Source of the DNA: an uncultured Dehalococcoidia bacterium | GTDB taxonomy: Bacteria; Chloroflexota; Dehalococcoidia; Lucifugimonadales; GCA-2712585 | NCBI GenBank assembly: GCA_958295715.1 | Contig: OY282371.1 | Coordinates: 1,471,697 to 1,535,696, forward strand | DNA length: 64,000 bases | Direction: 5' to 3' | In this document: one piece after another, positions 2,175 to 50,593 of the stretch | Numbering within the stretch: the first letter of the stretch is position 1 | How the letters are laid out: each line of letters starts with the position of its first letter | Program-made: the position numbers and the translations under genes | The notes under the pieces: model-generated | Database searches by the model: none | Told to the model about the DNA's origin: nothing | The model's input: the letters and a program-made list of their open reading frames with translations, nothing else

Positions 2175-2560
2175 TGCTCCGTCATTCCCGTTTTTCCTTC
2201 TCGTCATTCCCGCGCAGGCGGGAATCCATCCCCTCTTAACGTTGCGCCGGGTCAACCGCGCCACGGCGCGCCCATTTCCGTCATCCGCCCTCTTATCTGT
2301 CATTCCCGCGCAGGCGGGAATCCATCCCCTCTTGACGTTGCGCCGGGCCAACCGCGCCACGGCGCGCCCATTTTTGTCATTCCCGCGCAGGCGGGAATCC
2401 AGGAAGGCCACGACGCAGAACCAACGCTCCAAACTCCGGCGTCACACGTAGGTGCGCCCCTCACGCGGGTCTGCCCTTAACGGGACCGCCTCTTACCTCA
2501 CGGAGCGCCGTTGCTCTGTCGCAACGAAAGTAAGAAAGATGGATTCCCGCCTTCGCGGGA
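2175..2560. repeat. Cluster of REP-like hairpin repeats (core GTCATTCCCGCGCAGGCGGGAAT)
   Basis: Full cores start near 2203, 2299 and 2376, each with a shared flank (GGAATCCATCCCCTCTT.ACGTTGCGCCGGG.CAACCGCGCCACGGCGCGCCCATTT). The last copy (2541-2560) is cut off by the IS110 insertion. Confidence 0.9.
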
Positions 2561-2586
2561 GTATCCCTGTTAGAAGTCAAGGGGGG

Positions 2587-3528
2587 TTAGGTGGTTGAGG
2601 AGCGCTGTTCCGTCCAGGGGGCGCCCCGCCGGGCCACCGCGTTGAGTTGCAGCAGCAGCTTGCGCATGGCCGCCACTATGGCCACCTTGCCCGGCTTACC
2701 CCCTCGCTTCAGACGCTCGTAGAACCTCTTCAGTTCCCCCTCCCACCGGACCCCCGACAGCGCGGCCATGTACAGGGCCCGGCGCACCCACCAACGCCCC
2801 CCACGGATGCTCCGCCGCCCCTGCTGTCGCCCACTGTCCCGGGACCAGGGGGCCAGCCCCACCAGGGAGGTCAGGGCCCGCCCGTTTATCACTCCCAACT
2901 CCGGCAGGTGGGCTATCAGGACGCAGGCCGTCAGTTCTCCCACCCCACGCACGCTCTGATACAGGGCCGCCCGCTCCCCCAGACTGGCGTGGCTCGAAAG
3001 CATCCTGCCCCGCTCCCGGTCCAGTTCAGTTATCTCCTCCTCCAGCCATCCAATGTGCCGCCTCACCGACCTCTTCATCCTCTCGTTCAGCCCCTTCTCC
3101 AGCCGGTTCCGTTCCTGCACCCTCTGTTCCACCAACTGCCGGCGGCGGACCATCAGCTCTTTCAAGGCCTCAGTCTCCTCATCCAGCCCGCCGGCGCCGG
3201 TCAACTCAAAGGCCATCCCATACCGGCTCAACACCTTGGCGTCGAGTCCGTCGGTCTTGGCCTCCTTCCCCAAGGCTCGCGCCAAGGCCCGCACCCGGTT
3301 GGGGTGGGCCACTTCCACCTCCACGCCACCCTTCCTCAGCCCTTTCACCATCCCGCGCTCGTATCCACCGGTGGCCTCGCAGACCGCCCGGGAGCATTCC
3401 TGGGTCCTCAGCCATTCCAGCAGTTCCTCCATCCCCTCCGGGGTGTTGGCGAATCCCTTCACCGCCCCCTCGCACACCGACACCGCCAATTCCCTCTTGC
3501 TCACGTCTATTCCCGCCGCCACTCTCAT
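2587..3528 (-). CDS. IS110 family transposase (DEDD-type recombinase)
   Basis: 313 aa. The N-terminus, MRVAAGIDVSKRELAVSV, and the C-terminal block, LTSLVGLAPWSRDSGRQQGRRSIRGGR...RRALYMAA, are typical of IS110/IS116/IS902 transposases. Confidence 0.9.
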   Translation of the reverse strand: MRVAAGIDVSKRELAVSVCEGAVKGFANTPEGMEELLEWLRTQECSRAVCEATGGYERGMVKGLRKGGVEVEVAHPNRVRALARALGKEAKTDGLDAKVLSRYGMAFELTGAGGLDEETEALKELMVRRRQLVEQRVQERNRLEKGLNERMKRSVRRHIGWLEEEITELDRERGRMLSSHASLGERAALYQSVRGVGELTACVLIAHLPELGVINGRALTSLVGLAPWSRDSGRQQGRRSIRGGRWWVRRALYMAALSGVRWEGELKRFYERLKRGGKPGKVAIVAAMRKLLLQLNAVARRGAPWTEQRSSTT

Positions 3529-3750
3529 CTCCCGGCCTCCTCTGCTATACTGTCGTCGCCCTCCGCACTTGCAAATGCGGGCCTCTACGCCCGTGTATCC
3601 CTTCGGAGCGGCTTGACGATGGCGCGGGGGGTGTCTTACTCCCGCACGGCGCAGCGGAACCTCAGGGGACCGCTCGCCCTATGACGGCCGACGCGCCCCC
3701 CGCGCCAGTCTTGTAGATTGGCCTCCCTACAAGACTTTTTCAACATACAA
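3529..3750 (-). ncRNA. Candidate IS110 bridge/guide RNA region (5' non-coding end of the IS)
   Basis: 222 nt of non-coding DNA lie between the transposase start and the IS end, where IS110-group elements encode their bridge RNA. It contains ATGACGG (3681-3687) and CGCGGG (3623-3628), which match the sequences immediately flanking the insertion point. It also has a 9-bp hairpin, GTCTTGTAG/CTACAAGAC, at 3709-3736. This is an inference only. Confidence 0.25.
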
Positions 3751-4030
3751 ATGACGGATAGGGGGCGGGAATGCGGATGGGGTGGGCAGAAGCCCCCAAC
3801 GCAGAATCAACGCTCCTCAAAACTAAAGTGGGCGCACGCGCCCTTCCCGCCTGCGCGGGAATGACGGGAGGGGGGCGCGCATCCCGCAGGGGGCGGCTGG
3901 CGCGCCCGCCGGAGATGGCGCGCGGCTGAGGGGAGGCGTCTATGTGGGGCTGGTTTTGCCGTGCGGCCTTCCTGGATTCCCGCCTACGCGGGAATGACGG
4001 GAAGGAAAAACGGGAATGACGGATAAGAGA
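3751..4030. repeat. Cluster of REP-like hairpin repeats
   Basis: Cores at about 3844-3866 and 3974-4000, plus half copies. The flank modules AGAATCAACGCTC and GGGCGCACGCGCCC are also present. Confidence 0.9.
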
Positions 4031-4151
4031 GCGGGTGGCTGGCGCATGAAGGGCAGGCGGCGGCGGGTGGGCGGGATGAGACCCCTCCCCGCATTTGCTA
4101 CGAGACGCCCCTGCCCTTACACTAGGGCCACCAAGCAAGAGGAGGTATCCC

Positions 4152-5798
4152 ATGCGCGGCAACACCGCTTTGGCCAACGTCCTGCGAATCGAAGGCGCCG
4201 AGTACCTCTTCTGCTACCCGGCCAACCCCCTCATAGAGGCCGCCGCCATCGCGGGCATACGGCCCATAATGTCCAGGACCGAGCGGACCACCGTCAACAT
4301 GGCCGACGGATACGCCCGGGTGTCCAACGGGCGGCGTCCCGCCGTGGTGGTCACCCAGTCCGGCCCCGGCATTGAGAACGCCTACGGCGGCGTGGCCCAC
4401 GCCTACGCCGAGTCGACGCCCATCCTCGTCCTGCCCGGCGGCCCGGCCAGGGACAAGACCTTCCAACCCCCCAACTTCCCCGCCGTGGAGGCGTACCGCA
4501 GCGTCGTAAAGTGGGGCGCCCAGATAAATTCGGCCTCCCGCGTCCCGGAGATGATGCGCCGCGCCTACACCTTCCTGCGCTCCGGCAGGCCGGGGCCCGT
4601 CATGCTGGAGGTCCCCGCCGACGTGGGGGAGGAGGAGATATCGGAGGAGGCCTTCGACTACAGGCCGGTGAAGGGCCTTAGGAGCGCCGGCGACCCCGAC
4701 GACGTGGCCGCCGCCGTGCGGGCCCTGCTGGCCGCCAAGCGCCCCGTGATATACGCCGGCCAGGGTGTCCTCTGGGCCGAGGCCTCCGCGGAGCTGCGCG
4801 AGTTCGCCGAGCTTGCCAACGCCCCCGTTATGACCACCAACACCGGCAAGAGCGCCTTCCCCGAAACCCACCCCCTGTCCCTGGGCGTCGGCGCCAACAC
4901 CATGACCAAACCCGTCAGCCACTTCCTGGGCCGGGCCGACCTGGTCTTTGGCGTCGGATGCAGCTTCACCACCAACCTGGCCTCCGTGGGGATACCGGTT
5001 GGAAAGACCTTGGTCCAGTGCGTAGTGGACGCCCGCGACCTCAACAAGGAGCAGCAGATACACCACGCCGTTACCGGCGACGCCCGCCTCACGCTGGCCC
5101 AGCTAATTGAAGAGCTCCGCAGGCAGGCGGGGAGCGATGGCCGGAAGGGGGAGGGCGGCGTGGCCGACGAGGTCCGCCGCGTGAAGGACGAGTGGCTGGA
5201 GGAGTGGATGCCCCTCCTGACCTCCGACGAGGTCCCCATCAATCCCTACCGGGTCATCCGGGAGTTGATGAACGCCCTCGACCCGGCTGAGACCATAGTC
5301 ACCCACGACTCTGGGCACCCCCGCGACCAGACCATCCCCTTCTACCAGGCCGTAACGCCCCGCGGGTATCTGGGCTGGGGAAACTCCAGCCAACTGGGGT
5401 ACTCCATGGGCCTAAGCATGGGGGCCAAGCTGGCCGCGCCGGACAAGACGGTGGTCGCCATCATGGGCGACGCGGCCATCGGCATGGCGGGAATGGACAT
5501 TGAAACCGCCGCGCGGCTGAACATCCCCATCCTCCTCATCGTGCTAAACAACCACGTGCTCAGCGGCTACTCCAAGAACTACCCGGTGGCCGCCGAGCGC
5601 TTCGGCTTCACCAACCTGTACGGCGACTACGCCGACCTGGCCAAGGCCCTCGGCGCCCACGGTGAGCGCGTCGCAGACCCCAAAGATATTGGGCCGGCCA
5701 TAGGCCGCGCCAGGGAGGCCATGAAGTCGGGCCACCCCGCGCTGCTGGAGTTTATGACCAAGGAGGAAAACTCCCTCTCCCGGTATCCCCTCGGCTAG
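4152..5798 (+). CDS. Thiamine-diphosphate-dependent enzyme (acetolactate synthase large-subunit-like family)
   Basis: ThDP-binding motif GDAAIGMAGMDIETAARLNIPILLIVLNN, and an N-terminus typical of the pyrimidine-binding domain. AGGAGG lies 8 nt before the ATG at 4152. The track start at 4095 lies in the repeat region. Confidence 0.8.
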   Translation: MRGNTALANVLRIEGAEYLFCYPANPLIEAAAIAGIRPIMSRTERTTVNMADGYARVSNGRRPAVVVTQSGPGIENAYGGVAHAYAESTPILVLPGGPARDKTFQPPNFPAVEAYRSVVKWGAQINSASRVPEMMRRAYTFLRSGRPGPVMLEVPADVGEEEISEEAFDYRPVKGLRSAGDPDDVAAAVRALLAAKRPVIYAGQGVLWAEASAELREFAELANAPVMTTNTGKSAFPETHPLSLGVGANTMTKPVSHFLGRADLVFGVGCSFTTNLASVGIPVGKTLVQCVVDARDLNKEQQIHHAVTGDARLTLAQLIEELRRQAGSDGRKGEGGVADEVRRVKDEWLEEWMPLLTSDEVPINPYRVIRELMNALDPAETIVTHDSGHPRDQTIPFYQAVTPRGYLGWGNSSQLGYSMGLSMGAKLAAPDKTVVAIMGDAAIGMAGMDIETAARLNIPILLIVLNNHVLSGYSKNYPVAAERFGFTNLYGDYADLAKALGAHGERVADPKDIGPAIGRAREAMKSGHPALLEFMTKEENSLSRYPLG

Positions 5799-5819
5799 AC
5801 CTTACGGAGGCGGCTAACC

Positions 5820-7226: not shown

Positions 7227-7280
7227 GCCCCCCGTCGCGCGTCCCGCGTGTGCCCTCCGGCTCTCCCCCAATTCCGGATG

Positions 7281-8100
7281 GATTCCCGCCCTCCCCATCC
7301 GTCATTCCCGCGCAGGCGGGAAGGGCGCGTGCGCCCACTTAAGTTTTGAGGGGCGTCGGCTCTGCGCGTTAGGTGTCCGTCATCCGCCGCCGGGTTACCC
7401 CACCCATCGCGCGCCCCCCCATCCGTCATTCCCGCGCAGGCGGGAATCCATCTTCGCCGGTTTTCTTCCGGCGCCATGGTTCTACTTTGACAGAACTCCA
7501 GGTTGGAGCGGGGGTAGGCCGAGTGCATGATAGCGACACAGTGGCCGTTTTGGGTTGGGGCCTTCCTGGATTCCCGCCTGCGCGGGAATGACGGAAACTG
7601 GGCGCGGAGATGGCGTGTGGGCGCTCGTCGGCGCGCAGTGGAGGCAAGAGGGGGATGGATTCCCGCCTTCGCGGGAATGACGAGAGAGGGGGCGGTGGCG
7701 CGCCCGCCGGAGATGGCGCGCGGCTGAGGGGAGGCGTCTATGTGGGGCTGGTTTTGCTGCGCGGCCTTCCTGGATTCCCGCCTTCGCGGGAATGACGGAA
7801 GGGGGAGGCAGGAATCGAAGCCCCCAGAGCAGAACCAACGCTCCGCAAAACTAAGTGGGCGCTCGTGCCCTTCCCGCCTGCGCGGGAATGACGGAAAGGG
7901 GGGCGGGACTCCATCCCCCCAGAGCAGAACCAACGCTCCGCAAAACTAAGTGGGCACGCGTGCCCTTCCCGCCTGCGCGGGAATGACGGAACGGGGGACG
8001 GGGCTCCATCCCCCCAGAGCAGAACCAACGCTCCGCAAAACTAAGTGGGCACGCGTGCCCTTCCCGCCTGCGCGGGAATGACGAGAAAGGAGGGCGGGAA
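7281..8100. repeat. Largest REP-like hairpin cluster in the window (about 8 cores, both orientations)
   Basis: Cores near 7300, 7425, 7568, 7656, 7772, 7870, 7965 and 8060. Track ORFs here translate to SFPRRRES / VIPAQAGI / RLRGNDG peptides, which are just the repeat read in different frames. Confidence 0.9.
7821..8100. repeat. Tandem array, 95-bp period, about 2.9 copies
   Basis: Unit: CCCCCAGAGCAGAACCAACGCTCCGCAAAACTAAGTGGGC.C.CGTGCCCTTCCCGCCTGCGCGGGAATGACGG... It starts at 7821, 7916 and 8011. Each unit carries two adjacent hairpins, GGGCACGCGTGCCC and TTCCCGCCTGCGCGGGAA. Confidence 0.9.
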
Positions 8101-8154
8101 TGGCGATTATTCATGGGTATCGCCGCTGGGTCAGGAAGGTATCGCCGCCAGCCC

Positions 8155-11383: not shown

Positions 11384-11590
11384 GTCATTCCCGCGTAGGC
11401 GGGAATCCATCTTTCCTCTTGGCCTTGCGCCGGGCCAAGCGTGAAACTGTGCCGCTCCCGTCCGTATGGGCGTTCCGGGTTGCCGCCTTACGGCTCTCGT
11501 CCGCAGTTATTACCCGTAATGGTTAGATGCTACGTTCAGCTGATGGGAGGAGGGGGGGATGCATCCCCGCCTCCTCTCATCCCATCACGG
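11384..11590. repeat. ~200-bp MITE-like composite repeat, copy C (one end decayed)
   Basis: A hairpin core at 11384 is followed by the internal module ...CCGTCCGTATGGGCGTTCCGGGTTGCCGCCTTACGGCTCTCGTCCGCAGTTATTACCCGTAATGG...CAGCTGATGGGAGG. This is the reverse complement of the modules at 16949-17149 and 42114-42311. Confidence 0.6.
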
Positions 11591-11689
11591 ATAAGAGGGC
11601 GGGCGGGAAGCCGGAAGGCGCTAACGCGGAACGCTCATACGGATGACGCGCGCCGATACGCGGTTACCCCGGCGCAACAAGGGGGGAGG

Positions 11690-11870
11690 GGATGGATTCC
11701 CGCCTGCGCGGGAATGACGGAAAGAGGGGGCGCGCGCGCCCTTCCCGCCTACGCGGGAATGACGGGAGGGAAAAAGCGGGAATGACGGAACCGGGGGGCG
11801 GGCGGGAAGCCGAAGCTTCCAACCCAGAACCAGCCCTCTTCAAAACAAAGTGGGCGCGCGCGCCCTTTGC
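11690..11870. repeat. REP-like hairpin cluster
   Basis: Cores at about 11694-11720 and 11740-11765 plus a half copy. AGAACCAGCCCTC and GGGCGCGCGCGCCC flank modules are present. Confidence 0.85.
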
Positions 11871-13932: not shown

Positions 13933-14104
13933 GGCTCTACGCCTCCCCTTTTGTTGGAACCTTTTCGCGGCTCCGTTCACCGGCGCCCCAACCCTATCCC
14001 TTGAAGACGTCGCAGCGAAACCCTCCGGCCTAACCGGCGGCTTGGACATCTAAGGATTCCGGATTCCCCTCTACGCAGGAATGCTTGGCAGGCGGCGGGA
14101 CGGG

Positions 14105-16311: not shown

Positions 16312-16741
16312 GGAAGGAGCCGGGGGCCTATAAGCCGGGTTCTGTATCCCGCAAGCGGGATGGCGACCATCTATCTAGCCCTTCCGGCTCCCGGAGGAAC
16401 CGGAAATCCCGGCGGGGCCGGGAACGACGTTGCCATCGGGGTCTAGCGGCCTACCCGGGGATGGGCCGGGCGCCCTTGTCCCCCTATTTGGCCTTGCTCC
16501 GGGCGGGGTTTGACCGCCGCCGCGTCGCCGCGGCCGGCCGTGAGCTCTTACCTCACGTTTTCACCCTTATCCCGCGCCCCTGAGTCAGGGGGTTGAGACG
16601 GTTCGGTTTCTGTGTCACTTTCCGTACCCGGCGCCCCGGAGGACGCCGGACCCTGGGCGTTACCCAGCGCCCTGCCCGGTGGAGCCCGGACTTTCCTCTC
16701 CGCTCAATGCGCAGCGGCCGCCCGGCCCTGCCGGCCCTTCC
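16312..16741 (-). ncRNA. rnpB: RNase P RNA, bacterial type A
   Basis: The reverse complement contains the universal blocks GAGGAAAGTCCGGGCTCC, GGGTAACGCC, GGTAAGAGC, AGCAAGGCCAAATAGGGG and ACAGAACCCGGCTTAT in the correct order. P1 can form between 5' GGAAGGGCCGG and 3' CCGGCTCCTTCC. Confidence 0.9.
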
Positions 16742-16778: not shown

Positions 16779-16948
16779 CGGAGAGGGCACTGCCCACGCC
16801 CGCCAACCCACGCTTGCCACCTCTGCTCGCCATGCCCGCCATCCATCCATCCTTTCGCCCCTTTCGCCACCCTCCCGCGGTCATTCGCGCGTATCCCCAC
16901 TCGCCCTTCCCGCCACCTCTGTTCGCCATGCCCGCCCCCTTCTTTTCC

Positions 16949-17149
16949 GTCATTCCCGCGCAGGCGGGAATCCATGCTCCCTCCTCCCATCAGATGAACG
17001 GACCATCCATCCATTACGGACAATAACTGCGGGCGAGAGCCGGAAGCCGCCAACCCGGAACGCTCATACGGACGGGAGCACGCGCCGCGGCCGCCGTTGT
17101 CACGGCGCAAGGCCAAGAGGGGATGGATTCCCGCCTGCGCGGGAATGAC
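16949..17149. repeat. ~200-bp MITE-like composite repeat, copy A (hairpin cores as terminal inverted repeats)
   Basis: GTCATTCCCGCGCAGGCGGGAATCCAT...CATCAGATGAACGGACCATCCATCCATTACGGACAATAACTGCGGGCGAGAGCCGGAAGCCGCCAACCCGGAACGCTCATACGGACGGGAGC...GGATGGATTCCCGCCTGCGCGGGAATGAC. It aligns along its full length with 42114-42311. Confidence 0.65.
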
Positions 17150-17525
17150 GAGACAGAGAGGAGGGCGGACAGGGGGCAGGAATCCCGAAGCTCCCAACGC
17201 TCTTTAAAACATAAGTGGGCGCACGCGCCCTTCCCGCCTGCGCGGGAATGACGGAAGGGGGGAACGGGAATCAAGGGTGGCGCGGGGCAGAGGACGCCCG
17301 CAAGGGACGCTCATACCCCTCTGGAATGACGCGCGGCTGAGGCGAGGCGCCTCTAAAAGAGCGTTGGTTTGGTGATGTGGGCTTCCTGGATTCCCGTTTT
17401 CACGGGAATGACGAGACAGAGGGAAAGCGGGAATGACGGAGGGGAGGGAATGACGGAAAGCGGGACGGGGCTCCATCTCCCCAGCGCAGAACCAACGCTC
17501 CGCAAAACTAAGTGGGCACGCGTGC
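17150..17525. repeat. REP-like hairpin cluster
   Basis: A core at about 17230-17253, and a T-A stem-variant core at 17388-17412 (TTCCCGTTTTCACGGGAA), plus half copies. Confidence 0.85.
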
Positions 17526-18359: not shown

Positions 18360-18640
18360 GCCCCTGTCCGTCATTCCCGCGCAGGCGGGAATCCATCTTC
18401 CTATCCCCGTTATGCCTGGACAATCGCACAACGGCCTGCCACCCCGTCAAGCATGCCCTCTTATCCGTCATACCCATGGAAACGGGAAGGGTGTGTGCGC
18501 CCAGTTTGTTTTGAAGAGCGTTGGTTCTGCGTCGAGGGCTTCCTGGATTCCCGCCTGCGCGGGAATGACGGATGGGACGAAAGGGGAATGACGGAGAGGA
18601 GGGTAGCGGGAATGACGGAAAAGAGGGATGGATCCACCAG
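18360..18640. repeat. REP-like hairpin cluster
   Basis: Cores at about 18369-18395 (forward) and 18545-18570 (reverse), plus GGGAATGACGG half copies. Confidence 0.85.
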
Positions 18641-18718
18641 CCCGGGAAAGGGCCGCGTATCCGTGAGCAAGGGAGGGCGGGAAGTGTTAGAATCTATCCA
18701 CCCGCCGGGAGGAGCGCC

Positions 18719-20899
<2,181 letters not shown>

Positions 20900-21297: not shown

Positions 21298-22698
21298 ATG
21301 GACCCTCGAAGGAACAGGAGCGGCCCCAAGGCCGGAAAGGACCTGCAAAAGCGAGTTCCGGAGTCCCTGCTGGCCCGCTTGTGGCAGGAGCGGGCGGCGC
21401 GGCAGGCCGGCTTCAGGACGGCGGAGGGCCGCCGGGTGAAGGTCCTCTACCCGGGCAGGCGCGGGACCGAGGCGGGCCCCGACTTCCGCGACGCCCTCAT
21501 CCACCGCGAGGGGGTGGGGCTGGTGCGGGGGGACGTGGAGCTTCACGTCGGCCCCCGGGACTGGCGCAGCCACGGCCACGGGGGCGACCCCCGGTACAAC
21601 GGGGTGGCCCTCCACGGCGTCCTGACGGGCGGCGGCGAGTCGTCCACCCGCCTTCAAAGCGGGGCACAGGCCCCGGTCATCTCCCTGGAGGGCCTCCTTG
21701 AGGCCGAACCCTCATCCGCGCCCAAGACATCCGGGAATGAATCCTTCATATGGTCCATCCTGGCGGGCAGGGGCTACCCCAGGCCGCGGTCCCGCGACGA
21801 GGCCCAGGGGCTGCTGGCCCGGGCCGGGAGGGAGCGGTTCCTGGGGATGAGCGCAGCCCTGGCCGGGCTGGTGGCGGAAGAGGGGGAGGAGGAGGCCATA
21901 TACCAGGCCTTGATGGAGTGCCTGGGCTACGTGGAAAACCGGGCGGCCTTCTTGGAACTGGCCCAGAGGGCGCCCTGCCGGTCCCTAGTGGAGGCGGCCA
22001 AACGGGTAATCCCCTCGGAAAGGCCGGCCCTCATTGAGGGGCTGCTCCTGAGGGCCGCTGGGCTTGGCCCCGGCGCGGACGACGCCTTGGACGCCGCAAC
22101 GCCCCCCATCCGTTGGCGCTTCTTCAGGGTCCGGCCCAGCAACCACCCGCGCCGGCGGGTGGCCGGGGCCGCGGCCCTCCTGGCCCGCTTCATGGAACAG
22201 GGCCTCCCGGAGGGGCTGGCGGCCCTGGCCCGGGAGGGCGGCTTCAAGCCCCTACGAAAAGGACTTCTTGTTCCCTGTCCACAGGCGGCCCCCGGCGGCT
22301 CGCCGGAGGAAAAGCGCCTCACCTCCTTGTCCCCTGTCCGGGGGGCGGCCCCCGGCGGCTCGCCGGAGGAAAAGCGCTTCACCTCCTTGTCCCCTGTCCG
22401 GGGGGCGGCCCCGGCCCTCATAGGCGGGGCTAGGGCGGCGGACATAGCGGTGAACGCCGTTCTGCCTTTTATTTATGCAAGAGGCCGGGGGCATGCCCGG
22501 GGTCTCCGACGCAAGGATGAAGCCGGGGCGGCGGAGGCCCTGGACATCTTCATGGCGGGGCCACGCCTCCAGTCCAACCGGGTCACCCGCGAGATGGAGG
22601 CGGTCCTCTTCCCCAAGGAGTGGCTCCCCCTGGGGGATTCCCTGCCCCGCCAGCAGGGGCTAATCCACTTTCACCATCTGGCGAGGGGTGAGGGGTGA
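21298..22698 (+). CDS. DUF2851 family protein
   Basis: The N-terminal block LWQER...GRRVKVLYPGRRGTEAGPDFRDALIHREGVGLVRGDVELHVGPRDWRSHGH matches my recollection of the DUF2851 signature. It contains an in-frame 60-bp tandem repeat. Confidence 0.7.
   Translation: MDPRRNRSGPKAGKDLQKRVPESLLARLWQERAARQAGFRTAEGRRVKVLYPGRRGTEAGPDFRDALIHREGVGLVRGDVELHVGPRDWRSHGHGGDPRYNGVALHGVLTGGGESSTRLQSGAQAPVISLEGLLEAEPSSAPKTSGNESFIWSILAGRGYPRPRSRDEAQGLLARAGRERFLGMSAALAGLVAEEGEEEAIYQALMECLGYVENRAAFLELAQRAPCRSLVEAAKRVIPSERPALIEGLLLRAAGLGPGADDALDAATPPIRWRFFRVRPSNHPRRRVAGAAALLARFMEQGLPEGLAALAREGGFKPLRKGLLVPCPQAAPGGSPEEKRLTSLSPVRGAAPGGSPEEKRFTSLSPVRGAAPALIGGARAADIAVNAVLPFIYARGRGHARGLRRKDEAGAAEALDIFMAGPRLQSNRVTREMEAVLFPKEWLPLGDSLPRQQGLIHFHHLARGEG
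22271..22412 (+). repeat. In-frame 60-bp tandem repeat (about 2.2 copies) inside the DUF2851 gene
   Basis: Units at 22284-22343 and 22344-22403 differ at a single base (22318 C vs 22378 T). A partial third copy covers 22404-22412. It encodes GAAPGGSPEEKR(L/F)TSLSPVR twice. Confidence 0.85.
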
Positions 22699-33564: not shown

Positions 33565-33799
33565 ATCCTACCTCCATTTGTGCAGCCCGTCGGAGCAGGC
33601 CGCGATTTGAGCCCTTGCGGGCTTCTTGGTTTACGGCGCATCCGGTGGATGACCGTGGAGTCTATTTTCCTCTTTTCGCTCCGAGTCTTCAAGAAGCGGC
33701 GGCCCGCCTTTCTCCCGATTTTGAGACCCTGAAGCCTTCACCACGCTTCCCACTCCCCCTTCCCGTCACTCCCGGGAGCGCGCCGCCCGGGCGCCACCC

Positions 33800-34450
33800 G
33801 CTCCCCCTTCCGTCATTCCCGCGCAGGCGGGAAGGGCGCGTGCGCCCACTTAGTTTTGGGGAGGGTTGGTTCGGGGTTGGAGGCTTCTTTAATTCCCGTC
33901 CCTTCTTCTTCCGTCATTCCCGCGAAGGCGGGAATCCAGGAAGGCCCCAACAGAGAACCAACCCCTAAAACCCCCGGCATCAACCCGGTGGCGCGTCCCT
34001 AGTGGATGCTGCCCCCTTGCCTCCCTTTTCCGTCATTCCCGCGCAGGCGGGAATCCATCCCCTCCTCACTGCATCCCGCGGCAACCCGGAAATCCCGCGC
34101 CACGGAACCAACGCCTAAAAACCCCGGCATCAACCCGGTGGCGCGTCCCTAGTGGATGCTGCCCCCTTGCCTCCCTTTTCCGTCATTCCCGCGCAGGCGG
34201 GAATCCAGGAAGGCCCCAACAGAGAACCAACGCCTAAAAACCCCTAACGCCACCCGAAGAGACGCCCTTAATGCGGGTCTGGCCGTAACGGGACTCGCCC
34301 TTGCCGAGACGGGAAGATGGATTCCCGCCTTCGCGGGAATGACGGATAAGAGGGGCGAAAGCGGGGAATCCATGCCCCCAGCGCAGAACCAGCCCTCCTC
34401 AAAACAAAGTGGGCGCTCGCGCCCTTCCCGCCTTCGCGGGAATGACGGAA
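33800..34450. repeat. REP-like hairpin cluster splitting carA from carB
   Basis: Six cores near 33811, 33912, 34031, 34181, 34319 and 34425. A ~92-bp direct duplication is also present at 33965-34056 and 34115-34206. Confidence 0.9.
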
Positions 34451-37699: not shown

Positions 37700-38090
37700 T
37701 CCCCCCTCTCCCCACTCCGTCATTCCCGCGCAGGCGGGAATCCATCTTTCCCGGCTTCATGGGCGGACCCGCTGTCTGTGGTGTATGACTAACGCCAAGG
37801 GCCAGCCCCAACATCTATGAATCCGTAGGGGCGCTCTGAAGGGAATGGGGGATGGATTCCCGCCTGCGCGGGAATGACGGAAAGGGGGGGAGGGAGAAGC
37901 CAAGCTCCCAACGCAGAACCGACGCTCTTCAAAACTTAGTGGGCGCACGCGCCCTTCCCGCCTGCGCGGGAATGACGGAACCGGGGAGCCGCAGCCCCCA
38001 ACGCAGAACCAGCGCTACTCAAAACTAAGTGGGCGCACGCGCCCTTCCCGCCTGCGCGGGAATGACGGAAAGGGGGGCGGAAATGACGGA
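37700..38090. repeat. REP-like hairpin cluster
   Basis: Cores near 37708, 37854, 37955 and 38045. Confidence 0.9.
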
Positions 38091-42089: not shown

Positions 42090-42455
42090 CGTCCATTCCC
42101 GCTTTCCCTTCTCGTCATTCCCGCGCAGGCGGGAATCCATCTTCTCGCCTCTCATCAGATGAACAGACCATCCAACCATTACGGATAATAACTGTGGGCG
42201 AGAGCCGGAAGGCGCCAACCAGGGACGCTCATACGGACGGGAGCGCGCGCCGTGGAGCGGTTGTCCCGGCGCAGTGGGGATGGGATGGATTCCCGCCTAC
42301 GCGGGAATGACGGATGGTAGGCGCGAGTGCGCGCGCTGTGGTTGCCTCGGCGCAACGGGGGCCGCGGGCGCTTGCTTTGTTTTGCGGGGTGTCGGTATAC
42401 GGCGTTAGGTTCCTGGATTCCCGCCTGCGCGGGAATGACGGAGTAGAAGGGGCGG
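42090..42455. repeat. REP-like hairpin cluster (contains MITE-like copy B)
   Basis: Cores near 42114, 42287 and 42415, plus half copies. Confidence 0.9.
42114..42311. repeat. ~200-bp MITE-like composite repeat, copy B
   Basis: It aligns end to end with 16949-17149: the same CATCAGATGAAC...CATTACGGA.AATAACTG.GGGCGAGAGCCGGAAG...GCTCATACGGACGGGAGC interior, bounded by inverted hairpin cores. Confidence 0.65.
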
Positions 42456-42599
42456 GAATGACGGGAAAGGAGGGGAGCTAGATGAGGGAATTAGGATTCC
42501 TGCCCCACCGGTTTGAAGGAAAGAAAGTTGAATACTTGTGTACACTCTATCTGTCATCCCCGAACTCGCCCCATCCGCATTCCCGCTCTCTCCCTATCC

Positions 42600-43060
42600 G
42601 TCATTCCCGTGAAAACGGGAATCCAGGAAGGCTTCGATTATGAAACAGCCCTGCGTATACATACTCGCAAGCGAGCGCAACGGAACCCTTTATGTGGGCG
42701 TAACCTCTAACTTGGCGCCGCGAGTTTGGGAGCACAAGAACGACCTGGCAGAGGGTTTCATCAAGCGGTACGGCGTCCACAGGCTGGTCTGGTTTGAGGG
42801 GCACGAAACAATGGAGGGCGCCATTACGAGGGAGAAGGCGTTGAAGCAGTGGAACAGGACATGGAAGCTCGAGTTGATTGAGGGGAGTAATCCGAAGTGG
42901 AAGGACCTATATGAGGGGTTGGGGTGAGGCGCCGCCCCGCTCCGCTACGGTGCCCGCCTCCGCCCTCCCGCCACCTAGCGGTAAGGGGAGAGCAGGGCGC
43001 GGTCTATGGGGTCAGTTCTGCGACGTGGCCTTCCTGGATTCCCGTTTTCACGGGAATGAC
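42600..43060 (+). mobile_element. Candidate TIR-bounded cassette: GIY-YIG nuclease gene flanked by exact 32-nt inverted copies of a variant REP hairpin
   Basis: 42600-42631 reads GTCATTCCCGTGAAAACGGGAATCCAGGAAGG. Its exact reverse complement is at 43029-43060, and again at 43120-43151. Confidence 0.45.
42640..42927 (+). CDS. GIY-YIG nuclease family protein (UPF0213/YhbQ-like)
   Basis: CVYILASERNGTLYVGVTSNLAPRVWEHK...REKALKQW is the GIY-(x10)-YVG / R / E pattern of small GIY-YIG proteins. The gene is AT-richer than its surroundings. Confidence 0.85.
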   Translation: MKQPCVYILASERNGTLYVGVTSNLAPRVWEHKNDLAEGFIKRYGVHRLVWFEGHETMEGAITREKALKQWNRTWKLELIEGSNPKWKDLYEGLG

Positions 43061-43255
43061 GGGAGGGGAGGCGGTGGGAATGAGTTGTTGGCGTTTCGGG
43101 TCGTGGTTCTGCGACGTGGCCTTCCTGGATTCCCGTTTTCACGGGAATGACGGGAAGGGGGACGGGGCTTCATCCTCCCAACGCAAACCCAACGCTCTTC
43201 AAACCTAAGCGGGCACGCGTGCCCTTCCCGTTTTCACGGGAATGACGGAAAGGGA
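43029..43255. repeat. REP-like hairpin cluster, T-A stem variant (TTCCCGTTTTCACGGGAA)
   Basis: Three variant cores at 43036-43060, 43127-43151 and 43225-43248. The first two lie in a 91-bp direct duplication. Confidence 0.9.
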
Positions 43256-45349: not shown

Positions 45350-45445
45350 GGTCTACCTCCCAGGGCGAAGAGCCGGGGCCTATTCTAACACAGGGCCGCC
45401 TCCCATGCAGAACACGGGCGCCTTCACCCCCGCCCCACCCATACA

Positions 45446-45474: not shown

Positions 45475-45516
45475 TGCCGGGTTCCCACCAGCCAACACCC
45501 CCGCTAAGGAGAGACC

Positions 45517-46428: not shown

Positions 46429-46432
46429 GCCG

Positions 46433-46978
46433 CTACGCCTGGGACCCACCGCCTCGGAGCCACCGCTCCAAGGCGACGGCGTCCCTGGGAAAGGCCAGTT
46501 CCGGAAGGCCGCCCGGCGAGAAGAACCCCACCTCCGACACCTCCTGCCCCGGGGCGGCCTCGCCGCTCACAACGCGGCCGTGATAGACCGCCAGGACCAC
46601 CGGGTTCCCCCGCTCGGAAAAGGCCCCGACCAGGCCCAGAATCTCCACCGTCACGCCCGTCTCCTCGAGGACCTCACGAGCCGCGGCCTCCTCCAGGGCC
46701 TCGCCCCTGTCCACGTAGCCGCCGGGGAGGCTCCACAGCCCGACGCCCGGCTCAATGGCGCGCCGCACCATGAGGGCCTTGCCGCCCCGCTCCACAATCA
46801 CCGCGGCGGCCAGCTTGGGGCCGTAGTAGATAACCCTGCCGCAGCGGGAACACGCCGGCCTTTCGGCGTTGTGGACCCACCGCAGGGCCAACGGCCCGCC
46901 GCATCCGGGACAGTAACGGTCTTCCTGACTCATCCTCAAAAGATACCACATCGCCACCGCGTCGCGACGGAGGGTCAC
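46433..46978 (-). CDS. NUDIX hydrolase with N-terminal zinc ribbon
   Basis: CPGCGG...CSRCG ribbon, then the Nudix box GGYVDRGEALEEAAAREVLEETGV. Start is uncertain (46978, 46951 or 46933). Confidence 0.75.
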   Translation of the reverse strand: MTLRRDAVAMWYLLRMSQEDRYCPGCGGPLALRWVHNAERPACSRCGRVIYYGPKLAAAVIVERGGKALMVRRAIEPGVGLWSLPGGYVDRGEALEEAAAREVLEETGVTVEILGLVGAFSERGNPVVLAVYHGRVVSGEAAPGQEVSEVGFFSPGGLPELAFPRDAVALERWLRGGGSQA

Positions 46979-46987
46979 GGGGGAAAA

Positions 46988-47016
46988 TTGCCCTGCCCCG
47001 CCGCTCTGGTATAAAG
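46988..47016 (+). promoter_or_regulatory. Possible promoter giving a near-leaderless mRNA
   Basis: TTGCCC, 16-17 nt, then TATAAA(G). The -10 ends about 11 nt before the ATG at 47027, and there is no SD in between. Confidence 0.35.
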
Positions 47017-47026
47017 TAGCGTCGGC

Positions 47027-49909
47027 ATGAAAAAGACCACCAAAGAGACCAGGGAACTAGAGGCGGAACTCCGCAAGCTGGTGTCCGGCGAGGTGCGGTT
47101 CGACGCCTTCTCCAAGGTCATCTACAGCACAGACGCCAGCATCTACCAGATGGAGCCGGTGGGCGTGGTCATCCCCCGTGACGCAGAGGACGTTTTGGCC
47201 GTGGTGGACGCGGCCCACCGGTGGGGCGTCCCGGTCCTGCCCCGGGGCGGCGGCACCAGCCTCGCGGGGCAGACGGTGAACCACGCCATAGTCATCGACT
47301 TCTCTAAGTACATGAACGGCGTCTTGGAGGTGAACCCGGAGGAGAGGTGGGCCTGGACCCAGCCCGGCGTGACGCTGGACCAACTCAACCGGCGGGTCGT
47401 GTCCCACGGACTCCGGTACGCCCCCGACCCCTCCACGGCCAACCGCGCCACCGTGGGCGGCGGCATCGGCAACAACTCCTGCGGCTCCCACTCCGTCCTC
47501 TACGGCAAGACGGGAGACCACGTTATCGAGCTCAACGTCGCCCTCTCCGACGGCAGCCAGGCCCACTTCCGAACCCTAGACGACGCCGAGTTGGAGGCCA
47601 AGCTGCGCGGCCAGGGGCTGGAGTCCGGCATCTACAAAGGCGTCCTCCGGATAGCCGAGGAGAACCGGGAGGAAACCCATGCCCGCTACCCGTCGATAAT
47701 GCGGCGGGTCAGCGGCTACAACCTGGACCAGTTCCCCAAGGGCGAGCCGGTGAACCTCAGCCGGATGGTGGTGGGGTCCGAGGGGACCCTTAGCGTGATC
47801 ACCAAGGCCAAGGTTAACCTGGTCACGCGGCCCAAGACCACCGCCCTGGCCATCGCCCACTTCCGCCGGCTGGACGAGGCCTGCGAGGCGACCACGGCCG
47901 TTCTGGAGCACGGCCCCGCCGCGGTGGAGTTGGTGGGCGAAATGCTGCTGGACCGCACCCGCCAATCCCTGGGCTTCGCGCGCAACATGACCTTCATCAA
48001 CGGCAACCCCGGGGCCGTTCTGGTGGTGGAGTTCGACGGCGAGTCCGAGCTTGAGGTCTCCTCCAAGGCGGCCCGGCTGAAGGACGACCTGGCGAGGCGG
48101 GGCCTAGGCTACGACACAATCATCCTGTTAGACAGGGCCGCCCAGGCCAACGTGTGGGCCGTCCGCAAGGCGGGCGTGGGCCTGCTGATGGGCGTGCGGG
48201 GCGACGCCAAACCCATTCCCTTCGTGGAGGACACGGCGGTGGACCCGGAGCGGCTGGGGGAGTTCGTGCGCCGCTTCGACAGCATCGTCAAGGGCCACGG
48301 GACCGAGGCCGGATACTACGGCCACGCCAGCGTCGGATGCCTACACATCCGTCCTCTAGTGAACCTCAAGACCCAGGAGGGCCTGGACGCCATGGTGTCC
48401 ATCGCCGACGAGATAGGCGACCTGGTGAAGGAGTTCGGCGGTTCTCTGAGCGGCGAGCACGGCGACGGCATCGTGCGGGGCGTATGGACTGAGAAGATGT
48501 TCGGCCCCGCCATCTACCGCGCCTTCCAACAGGTCAAGGAGACCTTCGACCCCCGGGGCATTATGAACCCCGGCAAGATTATCGACTGCCCGCCCATGAC
48601 CGAGAACCTGCGATACGGCCCCGGCTACAAGGCCCTTGCCCTTGACACCCGCTTGGACTTTTCGGCGGAGGATGGGTTTGGCGGCGCGGTGGACCTGTGC
48701 AACGGGATGGGGGCCTGCCGCAAGGACGACGGCGTTATGTGCCCCTCATACATGGTCACCCGCGAGGAGGAGCACTCCACCCGAGGCCGCGCCAACCTGC
48801 TGCGCTCCGTCCTGGCAGGCGCCCTGCCGCCGGACACCCTCCGGAGCCGACGCCTTCACGACGCCCTTGACCTGTGCCTTGAGTGCAAGGGTTGCAAGGG
48901 GGAGTGCCCCTCCACGGTGGACATGGCCAAGCTCAAGTACGAGTTCCTTCACCAGTACAACAGGGCCAACGGAACGCCCCTAAGAAGCCGGCTCTTCGCC
49001 AACATCGCCCGGCTCAACCGCCTGGGCTGCCGGCTGGCCCCCCTGTCCAACCTGGCCGCCGGTCTGCCCGGCCTAAGGCCGCTCCTGCACAAGTTCCTGG
49101 GCATTCACCGCAAGCGCCCCCTCCCCGCCTTCGCCCGGCCCACCCTCCCGGCCTGGTTTAGGGGCAGGAAACCCCTGGGCGGCGGCGCGCGGGGGCCGGT
49201 GGTCCTCTTCAACGACACCTTTATGAACTACAACGCGCCGGGCGTCGGCGTCGCGGCGGTGGAGGTCCTGGAAAAGGCGGGATTCCAGGTCATCCTGGCC
49301 GGCGGACGCTGCTGCGGCAGACCCATGATTTCCAAGGGGCTGTTGGACGAGGCCGCGGCCAACGCCCGGTTCAACGTCGACCTCCTAGCCCCCCACGTCC
49401 GGCGGGGAACGCCCGTGGTGGGATGCGAACCCAGCTGCCTCCTCACCCTCCGCGACGAGTACCCGGACCTGCTCCAAGACGACGCCTCCAAGGAGGTGGC
49501 CGGCGGCAGCTTCCTCATCGACGAGTTCCTGGACAACCTCCGGCGGGAAGGGCGGCTTGACCTGGAGTTCTCCGACCTGTCCAAAAAGGTCCTGTTCCAC
49601 GGCCACTGCCACCAGAAGGCCCTGGTGGGAACGGCGGCGTCAATGCGCGTCCTGGGCCTTCCGCCCAACTACGAGGTGGAGGAGACGGGGGCCGGCTGCT
49701 GCGGCATGGCCGGGGCCTTCGGCTTCGAGCGGGAGCACTACGACGTGTCCATGGCCATAGGGCGGGAGCGGCTCTTCCCCCTGGTGGAAGCCAAAGGCCC
49801 CGGCTGGGAGATAGCCGTCACGGGGATATCCTGCCGCCAGCAGGTGGAGCACGGGGCCGGCCGCCGGCCGCGCCACCTCATCGAAACCCTCCGAGACGCG
49901 CTGGCGTAA
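47027..49909 (+). CDS. FAD-binding oxidase fused to Fe-S/CCG domains (YdiJ-like 2-hydroxyacid dehydrogenase)
   Basis: 960 aa. N-terminal PCMH-type FAD domain (PRGGGTSLAGQ), a central CLECKGCKGECP ferredoxin-like motif, and C-terminal CCG repeats (CCGRP.., GCCGMAGAFG). Confidence 0.85.
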   Translation: MKKTTKETRELEAELRKLVSGEVRFDAFSKVIYSTDASIYQMEPVGVVIPRDAEDVLAVVDAAHRWGVPVLPRGGGTSLAGQTVNHAIVIDFSKYMNGVLEVNPEERWAWTQPGVTLDQLNRRVVSHGLRYAPDPSTANRATVGGGIGNNSCGSHSVLYGKTGDHVIELNVALSDGSQAHFRTLDDAELEAKLRGQGLESGIYKGVLRIAEENREETHARYPSIMRRVSGYNLDQFPKGEPVNLSRMVVGSEGTLSVITKAKVNLVTRPKTTALAIAHFRRLDEACEATTAVLEHGPAAVELVGEMLLDRTRQSLGFARNMTFINGNPGAVLVVEFDGESELEVSSKAARLKDDLARRGLGYDTIILLDRAAQANVWAVRKAGVGLLMGVRGDAKPIPFVEDTAVDPERLGEFVRRFDSIVKGHGTEAGYYGHASVGCLHIRPLVNLKTQEGLDAMVSIADEIGDLVKEFGGSLSGEHGDGIVRGVWTEKMFGPAIYRAFQQVKETFDPRGIMNPGKIIDCPPMTENLRYGPGYKALALDTRLDFSAEDGFGGAVDLCNGMGACRKDDGVMCPSYMVTREEEHSTRGRANLLRSVLAGALPPDTLRSRRLHDALDLCLECKGCKGECPSTVDMAKLKYEFLHQYNRANGTPLRSRLFANIARLNRLGCRLAPLSNLAAGLPGLRPLLHKFLGIHRKRPLPAFARPTLPAWFRGRKPLGGGARGPVVLFNDTFMNYNAPGVGVAAVEVLEKAGFQVILAGGRCCGRPMISKGLLDEAAANARFNVDLLAPHVRRGTPVVGCEPSCLLTLRDEYPDLLQDDASKEVAGGSFLIDEFLDNLRREGRLDLEFSDLSKKVLFHGHCHQKALVGTAASMRVLGLPPNYEVEETGAGCCGMAGAFGFEREHYDVSMAIGRERLFPLVEAKGPGWEIAVTGISCRQQVEHGAGRRPRHLIETLRDALA

Positions 49910-50029
49910 CGCTGTGAGCGCGACCCTAGCCTTGGTGAGCCGTTATGTAAAGCGAACGCCACGGCCCCCCTCCCTGCCGGTGGACCCTTGCAAAATTCGC
50001 TATCCCGCGCCGCAAACCCTCTCCCCCAT

Positions 50030-50108
50030 CCCACTCATCATTCCCGCCCTCTCTCGTCATTCCCGCCCTCTTATCCGTCATTCCCGCGCAGGCGGGAATC
50101 CAGGAACC
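50030..50108. repeat. REP-like hairpin copy (forward) with two upstream half copies
   Basis: GTCATTCCCGCGCAGGCGGGAATCCAGGAACC at 50077-50108, preceded by CATCATTCCCGCC and GTCATTCCCGCC half sites. Confidence 0.85.
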
Positions 50109-50234
50109 CTTCACCCCAAAACCAACACCCCAAATCCCAGCGTCACCCATGGGGGCGCTCCTGTCCCTCCCTGCGCGAGCGCACCCCGCATCTCCCCCTT
50201 GTCAAAACCATGATTTTCGTGTAATACATCATCC

Positions 50235-50543
50235 ATGCGCACATTTACATTAAGAGTAGTTCATCCAGACATCGGCGTATATGTGGCTAGGGTTGACGTG
50301 AATAATCACTGGTCAATTGACCCCGACACCTTCCCAGAGTTAAAAGAGTTTCCTGAGTTACAACTCAAGGCAATTCGAAATGAGGTAATGCGACTTCACA
50401 TGCTTGCCGAATTTGCAAAACCTCTTGGCGGACTACCCGACTACGCCAAATACCCTCAAGCTGTTATTGATGAATATCCCGGAACAAAAGTTATCTCAGT
50501 GGATCCACCGTGGCCCCCCATCGACCCCAACGTCGTATATTAG
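50235..50543 (+). CDS. Hypothetical protein (AT-rich orphan)
   Basis: 102-aa ORF in the most AT-rich stretch of this part of the window. I recognise no motif. Confidence 0.4.
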   Translation: MRTFTLRVVHPDIGVYVARVDVNNHWSIDPDTFPELKEFPELQLKAIRNEVMRLHMLAEFAKPLGGLPDYAKYPQAVIDEYPGTKVISVDPPWPPIDPNVVY

Positions 50544-50561
50544 CCTCCCTTTGGGATGGAT

Positions 50562-50593
50562 GGTTTTCTGGATTCCCGCCTTCGCGGGAATGA
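50562..50593. repeat. REP-like hairpin copy (reverse orientation)
   Basis: GGTTTTCTGGATTCCCGCCTTCGCGGGAATGAC, inverted relative to the copy at 50077-50108. Confidence 0.85.

Follow-up and report, generated by a model that had tools for sequence, protein, structure and literature searches.

A hairpin family of the Neisseria Transformation Sequence type, and a GIY-YIG nuclease gene set among its copies, in a Dehalococcoidia genome

The closest known counterparts of the repeats discussed here are the Neisseria Transformation Sequence (NTS) and the more degenerate Ssn-related motif (SRM), which have been linked across phyla to ssnA, a small gene encoding a single-domain GIY-YIG protein (PMC11893778). 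The SsnA protein of Neisseria meningitidis, 94 residues long, binds the hairpin only as single-stranded DNA (ssDNA) and cuts a few nucleotides upstream of it on the motif strand, while being inactive on double-stranded DNA (dsDNA), RNA and the reverse strand; it needs a GTC triplet for cleavage and, for binding, a C after the palindrome, which is the most critical base (PMC11893778). Mutating Y6, Y17 or E64 abolished cleavage, altering the stem sequence with the hairpin kept abolished activity, and transformation by NTS-bearing DNA is reduced by SsnA about five-fold (PMC11893778). Here we describe a 64-kb stretch from the genome of an uncultured Dehalococcoidia bacterium (contig OY282371.1, positions 1,471,697 to 1,535,696; hereafter the window), in which 42 copies of a hairpin of this type crowd the spaces between genes and a gene of the same kind, ssn, lies among them at 42640-42927.

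An older strand of work concerns dRS3, units of which flank RS elements of 50–150 bp in the dynamic arrays called neisserial intergenic mosaic elements (NIMEs), thought in 2007 to be confined to Neisseria (PMC1797815). With the motif and its nuclease partner already published in 2025, the family itself is not new. What is new is its Chloroflexota host, the density and recency of its expansion, the empty sites in related genomes, the outward-facing grammar of its arrays and an IS110-family insertion sequence (IS) apparently aimed at the hairpin. From the sequence evidence, we take the window repeats to be NTS/SRM elements – oriented hairpins of ssDNA in which an 8-bp stem carries a loop of 4 nt, with GTC preceding the palindrome and C following it – and would put the probability of the whole reading of the repeats as Ssn sites, taken jointly, at about 0.75.

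Copies and identity of the hairpin family

The motif ATTCCCGCGNAGGCGGGAAT occurs exactly 25 times in the window, against 0.00 occurrences expected from 100 dinucleotide-preserving shuffles, and the looser pattern ATTCCC-N8-GGGAAT 29 times, against 0.02 expected from shuffles. With one mismatch allowed, the count rises to 42 copies, of the form GTCATTCCCG-Y-GNAR-R-CGGGAA, in ten intergenic arrays (Table 1); a 43rd match, at 14063, has two mismatches, lies within a gene and is probably due to chance. As judged by the non-palindromic GTC at the 5' side, 19 copies point along the + strand and 23 along the -, including one split copy (2540-2562) to which we return below. None of the 42 falls in a called gene, although intergenic DNA accounts for only some 19% of the sequence (P about 5e-31). 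The arrays cover about 5.5 kb of some 12.1 kb of intergenic DNA, and the family has a density of about 0.66 copies per kb. An earlier, sequence-only reading of this stretch had counted about 42 full copies by eye in both orientations, placed them in at least ten clusters, seen none inside the well-supported genes and called them REP-like (REP, repetitive extragenic palindrome). All of this is borne out by the counts: each of the ten listed clusters is found at its given position, and the family is strongly non-random and avoids genes.

Variation within the family is structured. The loop is GCAG in 26 copies, GAAG in seven and GTAG in four, so that the variable second loop position noted previously is real; in the remaining five it is GAAA, and exactly these five (at 17390, 42600, 43038, 43129 and 43224) form the subfamily, also recognised before, in which a T-A closing pair replaces C-G (CCCGTGAAAACGGG). 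The recurring flanks likewise proved genuine. Module A follows the hairpin as CCAGGAAGGCC..GCAGAACCAACGCTC and module B as CCATCCCCTCTT..GCGCCGGG, whereas module C reads GGGAAG-GGCRCGNGYGCCC-ACTTAGTTTTG, the GGGAAG being fused to a second palindrome, GGGCRCGNGYGCCC, which is followed by ACTTAGTTTTG and then by the reverse complement of the module-A tail. The 12 module-C copies therefore end in GGGAAG rather than GGGAAT, which creates an A.G mispair at the base of the stem, and they are without the C after the palindrome; the earlier description of the stem as essentially invariant has to be given up on their account. The hairpin forms that can be distinguished are CCGTCATTCCCGTGAAAACGGGAATCCAGG, a major form (...GCGCAGGC...) and a module-C form (...GGGAAGGGCGCGTGCGCCC). 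Folded as DNA, the hairpin reaches -8.9 kcal/mol (z=-3.2).

A comparison with the literature, of the kind that the sequence-only reading had recommended, identified the motif – unrecognised in that reading – as the dRS3/NTS of Neisseria. Three published patterns (PMC11893778) were applied: dRS3, ATTCCC-N8-GGGAAT; the 28-nt NTS, CGTCATTCCCGCGMAVGCGGGAATCYRG, for which Chenal et al. 2025 (PMC11893778) accept at most one mismatch to the consensus; and the degenerate SRM, as the regular expression HGTCWYN(0-2)YYVSBRHN(0-5)WNVSBRGN(0-2)RNCYNB. They find, respectively, 29 exact copies in the window, 22 copies with at most one mismatch (eight of them exact) and 29 copies (14 on the + strand, 15 on the -). 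The copies that match neither the NTS nor the SRM pattern are the 12 module-C copies and the copy split by the IS. In an Rfam scan of the window, RNase P RNA alone scored above threshold, and no family was returned for the hairpin.

The arrays also have a practical consequence, since annotation pipelines are prone to call dozens of false open reading frames (ORFs) in them. The sequence-only reading had named the peptides by which these may be recognised, and all three are abundant in the window (SFPRRRES 25 times, VIPAQAGI 17 and RLRGNDG 29), where 36 open frames of at least 80 codons run across the arrays. A related observation concerns the ORF at 18572-20899(+), a fusion of a class-I cysteinyl-tRNA-synthetase-type catalytic domain (residues 66-374) to a family-2 glycosyltransferase domain (residues 544-670) that is kept in two syntenic relatives (L081, 21465-23312; L082, 21346-23321): its start has probably been annotated too far upstream, because the frame runs into hairpin half-sites.

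Table 1. Hairpin arrays, the ssn cassette, the inserted element and other features of the window (signs in brackets give the strand of each copy or gene)
Feature	Position	Strand	Description
Array 1	2181-2562		half-site 2181; copies 2203-2225(+), 2299-2321(+), 2376-2398(+); 2540-2562(-) cut at GCGGGA by IS; 96-bp tandem unit
Array 2	3750-4020		remainder of split copy, ATGACGG, 3750-3756; 3843-3865(-) module C; 3976-3998(-) module A; half-site 4011-4020
Array 3	7279-8104		between convergent genes; 7301(+), 7425(+), 7570(-), 7659(-), 7774(-), 7870(-), 7965(-), 8060(-)
Array 4	11384-11786		11384(+), 11696(-), 11741(-); half-site 11777
Array 5	16880-17454		16949(+), 17127(-), 17230(-), 17390(-, T-A/GAAA); stuttered half-sites 17428, 17445; adjoins RNase P RNA gene
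Array 6	18370-18616		18370(+), 18547(-); stuttered half-sites 18583, 18607
Array 7	33765-34446		33812(+), 33913(+), 34032(+), 34182(+), 34321(-), 34424(-)
Array 8	37719-38087		37719(+), 37856(-), 37954(-), 38044(-); 90-bp tandem unit
Array 9a	42090-42462		42114(+), 42289(-), 42417(-); half-site 42453
SRM-ssn-SRM cassette	42553-43246	+	left hairpin 42600-42622(+); right hairpins 43038(-), 43129(-), 43224(-); all T-A/GAAA
ssn gene	42640-42927	+	95-aa single-domain GIY-YIG; Pfam PF01541, residues 4-77, E=2e-15
Array 10	50037-50594		stuttered half-sites 50037, 50056; 50077(+) and 50572(-) bracket 472 bp
Half-sites	2181, 4011, 8095, 11777, 17428/17445, 18583/18607, 38078, 42453, 42553, 50037/50056		left arm only
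IS110-family IS, ~1.19 kb	2564-3749	-	transposase ORF 2587-3528(-); 5' non-coding 3529-3749
PDDEXK/NucS-like nuclease	55206-56117		
SMODS nucleotidyltransferase	57111-57950	-	
PIN-domain	57954-58409	-	
DUF2806	58706-59671	-	

The ssn cassette and its counterparts in other genomes

The generic REP-like or possible RNA element envisaged by the sequence-only reading gives way to a more specific explanation, a recognition site for an ssDNA nuclease, once the ssn gene that it had missed is taken into account. This gene is preceded by a Shine-Dalgarno-like AGGAAGG and is compositionally atypical, its GC content of 0.552 contrasting with 0.652 in the window as a whole. Homologues number more than 7,990, nearly all of about 95 residues and single-domain, and an alignment of 24 of them shows Y7, Y18, R28, E65 and N84 to be invariant. 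NCBIfam offers no specific model for the protein, with a sub-threshold intron-endonuclease match only; a sequence search of the PDB found no Ssn structure, its sole match being a spurious WD40 protein; and tblastn of the window detected a single ssn copy, with no ssn remnants in the other arrays.

Hairpins enclose the gene on both sides. The core of the left one ends (at 42622) 17 nt before the ATG, and the corresponding 28-nt SRM (at 42626) 13 nt before it. Because module A borders both cassette hairpins, the inverted repeat of the cassette is at least 33 nt long, reaching GTCATTCCCGTGAAAACGGGAATCCAGGAAGGC; the module A found beside orphan hairpins is this same sequence. Around the closest Ssn relative (80% identity, in locus L001), as in the cassette, the hairpins have a T-A closing pair and a GAAA loop. 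This suggests that gene and site move as a pair and that the partner of the bulk GCGCAGGC family might be another ssn paralogue elsewhere in the genome.

How regularly gene and motif occur together was assessed by scanning one genome per species, which gave 80 loci with 82 ssn genes, their products 66–80% identical to the window Ssn. The hosts include Dehalococcoidia, Betaproteobacteria, Nitrospinota, Nitrospiraceae, Cyanobacteria and Desulfobacteria. An SRM lies within 300 nt of the gene for 63 of the 82 homologues. In the modal layout one SRM, on the same strand, ends 12 nt upstream of the ATG, and another, on the opposite strand, starts 1 nt after the stop codon; SRM density falls from 2.83 per kb near ssn to 0.082 per kb beyond 1 kb. 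A scan of viral contigs with the Ssn alignment returned 4 loci only among 2.9 million contigs, so phage carriage is not a major route. One betaproteobacterial locus (L034, 4265-4990, from an uncultured betaproteobacterium known as a metagenome-assembled genome, or MAG) carries nine same-strand SRM hairpins at an 87-bp period directly upstream of its ssn homologue; hairpin units beside ssn have therefore been amplified in tandem in other phyla too.

The same loci show selection acting on the hairpin. From genome to genome its stem changes in compensated ways (ATTCCGGC/GCCGGAAT, ATCCCGGC/GCCGGGAT, ACCCCGGC/GCCGGGGT, ATTCCAGC/GCTGGAAT and ATGCCCGT/ACGGGCAT); over 80 distinct ssn-associated 28-mers, pairing extends to 97.7% of cells (84% in shuffles), and none of 500 shuffles reaches the observed values. 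Both-sided changes occur at six of the eight stem pairs, and no slid register comes close. The SRM expression used to collect these sites restricts base classes without enforcing pairing, a restriction for which the shuffle control accounts. Selection on the hairpin had been proposed from the window's own T-A subfamily: the proposal stands, by virtue of the comparison across genomes, but the argument on which it was based does not carry it, for within the window six of the eight pairs never vary, and the covariation is weak because it involves a single pair type, the swap of C-G for T-A being probably one event.

Array architecture, spread and an inserted IS110-family element

All arrays obey one rule of orientation. 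In each, + copies precede - copies, so that the GTC ends point outwards to the flanking genes, just as in the cassette; the sole switch from - to + in the entire series marks the start of the ssn cassette (P about 4e-9 under random orientation). Module-C units are laid out in tandem arrays of 90–96 bp and fold, as ssDNA, into two adjacent hairpins. The last units of array 3 are repeated in tandem 3.4 times with a period of 95 bp. A metagenome scan for the module-C signature GCGGGAAGGGCRCGNGYGCCCAC gave 4 matches, none with a full copy or ssn, and module C appears to be lineage-specific. About 14 half-sites, consisting of the left arm alone (GTCATTCCCGC/T plus a pyrimidine tract), stand 13–25 nt upstream of full copies, sometimes stuttered with a period of 19–24 nt, and the right arm of a full copy has two potential pairing partners, its own left arm and that of the half-site. 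Slippage and repeated nick-repair are both possible origins of the stutter.

Taken together, the arrays have the mosaic architecture of the Neisseria NIMEs, and their strict grammar – outward GTC, module families, stuttered half-sites – constrains the mechanisms by which they can have arisen. Their irregular spacing, their inverted units and the lack of cas genes led us to reject a reading as clustered regularly interspaced short palindromic repeats (CRISPR). Next to array 5 lies the RNase P RNA gene (bacterial class A, 16317-16733, - strand, 205.8 bits), which has one chance-level half-site match inside it.

When the window was compared with its relatives, the family turned out to be young. 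The carbamoyl-phosphate synthase large subunit (CarB) encoded in the window has its best named relatives among proteins labelled SAR202 cluster, Dehalococcoidia or Chloroflexota, and the closest Ssn relatives come from Dehalococcoidia MAGs. Contigs of three relatives, with CarB identities of 84–85%, are syntenic with the window over roughly 18.5–44 kb; searched with the regular expression and with a covariance model, the 23 kb of each yield 1, 0 and 0 copies, where the window has about 27. In the window as a whole, the covariance model recovers 29 strong matches, the 12 module-C copies and the split copy. The spacers have grown correspondingly: that between sucD and tmk, of 87 bp in one relative (L082), has a length of 1242 bp here and houses ssn and seven hairpins, and that between carA and orf136, the site of array 7, measures 127 bp in L082 but 893 bp in the window. 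Few or no copies in the relatives and inflated spacers in the window together indicate a recent, lineage-specific expansion into the spaces around housekeeping genes. The expansion is very dense, and its host, a free-living lineage of the Chloroflexota, differs from the symbionts and pathogens emphasised so far. The empty sites of the relatives offer a natural before-and-after comparison for studying how such repeats spread. Another of the relatives (L081, 9552-10000) has its own enlarged spacer, of 449 bp between orf136 and carB as opposed to 122 bp in the window, which contains one full SRM (ATTCCGGC/GCTGGAAT, including a G.T pair) as well as several half-sites of the form GGGAATGACGG. Colonisation has thus taken place separately in related genomes, and in different spacers.

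A recent expansion of this kind is neither a conserved regulatory feature nor an assembly artefact. That the repeats might reflect faulty assembly, or chance within the local base composition, deserves a thought in that the window appears to come from a MAG, yet shuffles lead one to expect zero copies, the repeats occupy ten separate spacers between syntenic housekeeping genes with a unique flank for each copy, and the same motif is found independently beside ssn in dozens of other genomes; we regard this explanation as practically negligible.

A role in RNA or transcription – as terminator, stabiliser of mRNA 3' ends or attenuator, as described for some REPs of Escherichia coli – would fit the stable, GC-rich stem of 8 bp and the position of several arrays at gene 3' ends between convergent genes (7.3–8.1, 42.1–43.3 and 50.0–50.6 kb). 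Other arrays, however, lie between divergent genes (3.8, 18.4 and 37.7 kb), every array contains both orientations, and close syntenic relatives manage with 0–1 copies in the same operon context. The stem is followed by CCAGG, CCATC or GGGCG on one strand and by GACGG on the other, with no run of T or U on either, and we rejected an intrinsic terminator for this reason. The conserved non-palindromic GTC and C, moreover, matter for ssDNA binding and cleavage, and N. meningitidis SsnA does not bind RNA (PMC11893778). The sequence-only reading had left open whether the hairpin acts as DNA or as RNA; with the Neisseria enzyme indifferent to RNA, the second option becomes the less likely one, and we consider an RNA role as a whole very unlikely.

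A different kind of guest is found at the downstream edge of array 1. The ORF at 2587-3528(-) encodes a DEDD transposase (PF01548, E=5e-25; PF02371, E=3e-15), and the IS110-family element to which it belongs is inserted within the left arm of an NTS copy, between GTCAT and TCCCG (to within 1–3 nt). Its junctions read ...GGATTCCCGCCTTCGCGGGA followed by GTATCC... at one end and ...CATACAA followed by ATGACGGATAGG... at the other. Rejoined, they restore an intact - copy, so the element inserted into a hairpin, and what had been taken for two clusters, at 2.2 and 3.8 kb, both of which do exist, are the halves of one array split by the IS. No terminal inverted repeats are evident by eye at the inferred ends.

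The 5' non-coding region of the element contains CCGTCAT, identical to the left target flank in the sense direction, and, 35 nt further on, GCGGGAGTA, which matches the right junction in antisense (joint shuffle P about 0.001); it also holds GGGATAC, the element's own right end. These matches are laid out as one would expect of the target loop of a bridge or seek RNA, and they suggest that the guides of such a putative RNA are programmed for the NTS left arm. Elements of the IS110 family are known to target REPs (PMC1525189, PMC11208160, PMC12288879), IS621 being an example (PMC11208160), and an element apparently programmed against an NTS arm would link two single-strand or RNA-guided systems.

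Could the repeats, then, be chiefly attachment or target sites for site-specific recombinases of the DEDD (IS110/Piv) type? The precise position of the element within one copy and its guide-like matches speak in favour, as do the REP-targeting members of the family just cited and the Nf prophage recombinase, which integrates into the dRS3 of Neisseria (PMC1797815). Against this, a single copy of the 42 is occupied; abundant neutral repeats are known safe havens for IS elements, which leaves the existence and spread of the repeat itself unexplained; and the linkage to ssn across phyla would find no explanation either. We therefore judge this account highly improbable as the primary one: the IS110 element is a parasite of the repeats and no member of their family.

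If the repeats are Ssn sites, a mechanism can be sketched from what N. meningitidis SsnA does. By this analogy, the protein encoded at 42640-42927 would bind the hairpin only in ssDNA, as supplied by incoming transforming or conjugative DNA, by the lagging-strand template or by repair intermediates, and would then nick the motif strand a few nucleotides 5' of the GTC, remaining inactive on dsDNA and RNA. Because the arrays carry the motif on both strands with their GTC ends outward, either strand of an ssDNA spanning an array should be cleavable at the array edge. Orphan copies would derive from the cassette ends as non-autonomous units, their numbers raised by insertion and local tandem duplication. 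On this view, the window Ssn would be the enzyme that cuts these copies, ssDNA from one or more of these sources its physiological substrate, and its activity, rather than that of another enzyme, the force behind their spread.

One may go a step further and view the SRM-ssn-SRM cassette as an autonomous mobile element with the GIY-YIG nickase as its transposase, the arrays, tandem units and half-sites as a recent burst of non-autonomous derivatives, and the 28-nt site, nearly identical in Neisseria and in this Chloroflexota bacterium, as a trace of inter-phylum spread of cassette and site. We put this forward tentatively and hold it to be doubtful; if true, it would amount to a form of bacterial ssDNA transposition distinct from HUH/RAYT and IS200/IS605 systems (RAYT, REP-associated tyrosine transposase).

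Several observations weigh against the reading of the repeats as Ssn sites that spread from the cassette. The copies linked to the gene belong to the minority T-A/GAAA subfamily (five of 42), and natural competence is, to our knowledge, not known for this lineage. As changes to the stem kill the activity of N. meningitidis SsnA (PMC11893778), the window Ssn may not cut the major GCGCAGGC family, and the 12 module-C copies are without the 3' C on which binding by the N. meningitidis enzyme most critically depends (PMC11893778). In the window we found no target-site duplications or sharp element boundaries – the flanks consist of half-sites and polypyrimidine tracts – and transposition is consequently no more than a possibility. 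Finally, an identical 21-mer, ATTCCCGCGCAGGCGGGAATC, present 241 times in N. meningitidis 2594, has been treated as a REPIN, or doublet of inverted REPs, associated with a Group 2 RAYT (10.1101/2021.07.10.451892).

This last point leads to the rival that we take most seriously, although we still consider it unlikely: a REP/REPIN population mobilised by a RAYT (an IS200/IS605-like Y1 HUH enzyme) encoded elsewhere in the genome, with ssn as a passenger or second user. Many window copies do form inverted pairs, 114–155 bp apart, in the manner of REPINs, and the arrays resemble bacterial interspersed mosaic elements (BIMEs). However, the spacers within the pairs lack self-complementarity, and except for one repeated unit of about 200 bp their sequences are different. 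This unit, bounded by inverted hairpins, occurs in two homologous versions (16925-17175 and 42090-42335) with the shared interior CATCAGATGAACRGACCATCCA..CCATTACGGA..TAACTG.GGGCGAGAGCCGGAAG and no coding capacity, and so resembles a composite miniature inverted-repeat transposable element (MITE); the spacers enclosed by the other inverted pairs are unrelated to one another.

Nor has a suitable enzyme come to light. Neither Pfam scans of the called genes nor the annotations of the syntenic relatives revealed a Y1 transposase in the window, a six-frame tblastn search with E. coli RayT gave no match there, and in 83 related loci (about 650 kb) there is one RayT-like match, 4 kb from ssn (in L037). 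The gene that hairpins do bracket, in the window and across phyla, is ssn. The recognition of the repeats by an Ssn-type nuclease hence remains our preferred explanation, and the protein of 42640-42927 may be regarded as a candidate new specificity for the ssDNA-cutting toolbox.

Two features of the window lie apart from the repeats. The family ends at 50.6 kb, and between 55206 and 59671 there is a hairpin-free tract of lower GC (0.54–0.61) that may be a small defence or toxin–antitoxin islet, to judge by its genes (Table 1). Within the ORF at 21298-22698, which is syntenic with a DUF2851 gene of the relatives L081 and L082, a 60-bp tandem repeat (22267-22412) is present in 2.2–2.5 copies with 93–98% matches.

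Comparison with known systems

Set beside MITEs, which are short non-autonomous derivatives of transposase-encoding elements with terminal inverted repeats and a target-site duplication, the window units give a mixed picture: they have inverted termini, and one unit of about 200 bp occurs twice, but neither a target-site duplication nor a sharp boundary was seen. The likeness to REPs and BIMEs, and to the REPIN–RAYT systems of E. coli, Pseudomonas and Neisseria (Group 2), extends over several traits: all consist of short extragenic palindromes (hundreds of copies), form mosaic clusters and inverted doublets, bracket a gene for a small nuclease or transposase and serve as landing sites for IS110-family elements. 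The enzyme of the window differs from theirs in being a GIY-YIG protein instead of a Y1 HUH one, no RAYT was detected in the window, and Ssn is not known to possess a transposition chemistry.

The inserted element, for its part, resembles IS110-family members of the IS621 and ISPpu9 type (PMC11208160, PMC11187229, PMC12288879) in its DEDD domains, in having no evident terminal inverted repeats, in the guide-like matches to its flanks and in its single defined position within a repeated palindrome. It differs in that it has targeted the NTS left arm in place of a classical REP; its putative bridge RNA is inferred from sequence matches.

Closer still are dRS3 and the NIMEs (Parkhill et al. 2000; Bentley et al. 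2007, PMC1797815), which have in common with the window the ATTCCC-N8-GGGAAT unit, RS-like spacers (here of 22–160 bp) that fall into a few recurring families, long intergenic arrays, copy numbers that vary between related genomes and inserted IS elements. The host is not Neisseria (window GC 0.65; CarB relatives in the Chloroflexota), and peculiar to the window are the strict succession of + and - copies with GTC outward, the tandem units of 90–96 bp and the stuttered left-arm half-sites.

The closest match of all is the NTS/SRM–Ssn system (PMC11893778), with which the window shares the consensus, the orientation given by the 5' GTC and the 3' C, the NTS-ssn-NTS layout and the intergenic clustering. 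The window protein, with 95 residues and Y7, Y18 and E65, may be likened to N. meningitidis SsnA, with 94 residues and Y6, Y17 and E64, on the basis of the published description (PMC11893778). The differences lie in the host, a member of the Chloroflexota with about 65% GC and outside those named in that paper's main text; in the copies, of which the gene-linked ones are a T-A/GAAA stem-loop variant distinct from the bulk family and 12 carry a fused second palindrome without the 3' C; and in the setting, the arrays of the window being grouped around housekeeping genes – carAB, pyrB, sucCD, cysS and the RNase P RNA gene – rather than around genes for surface or virulence functions.

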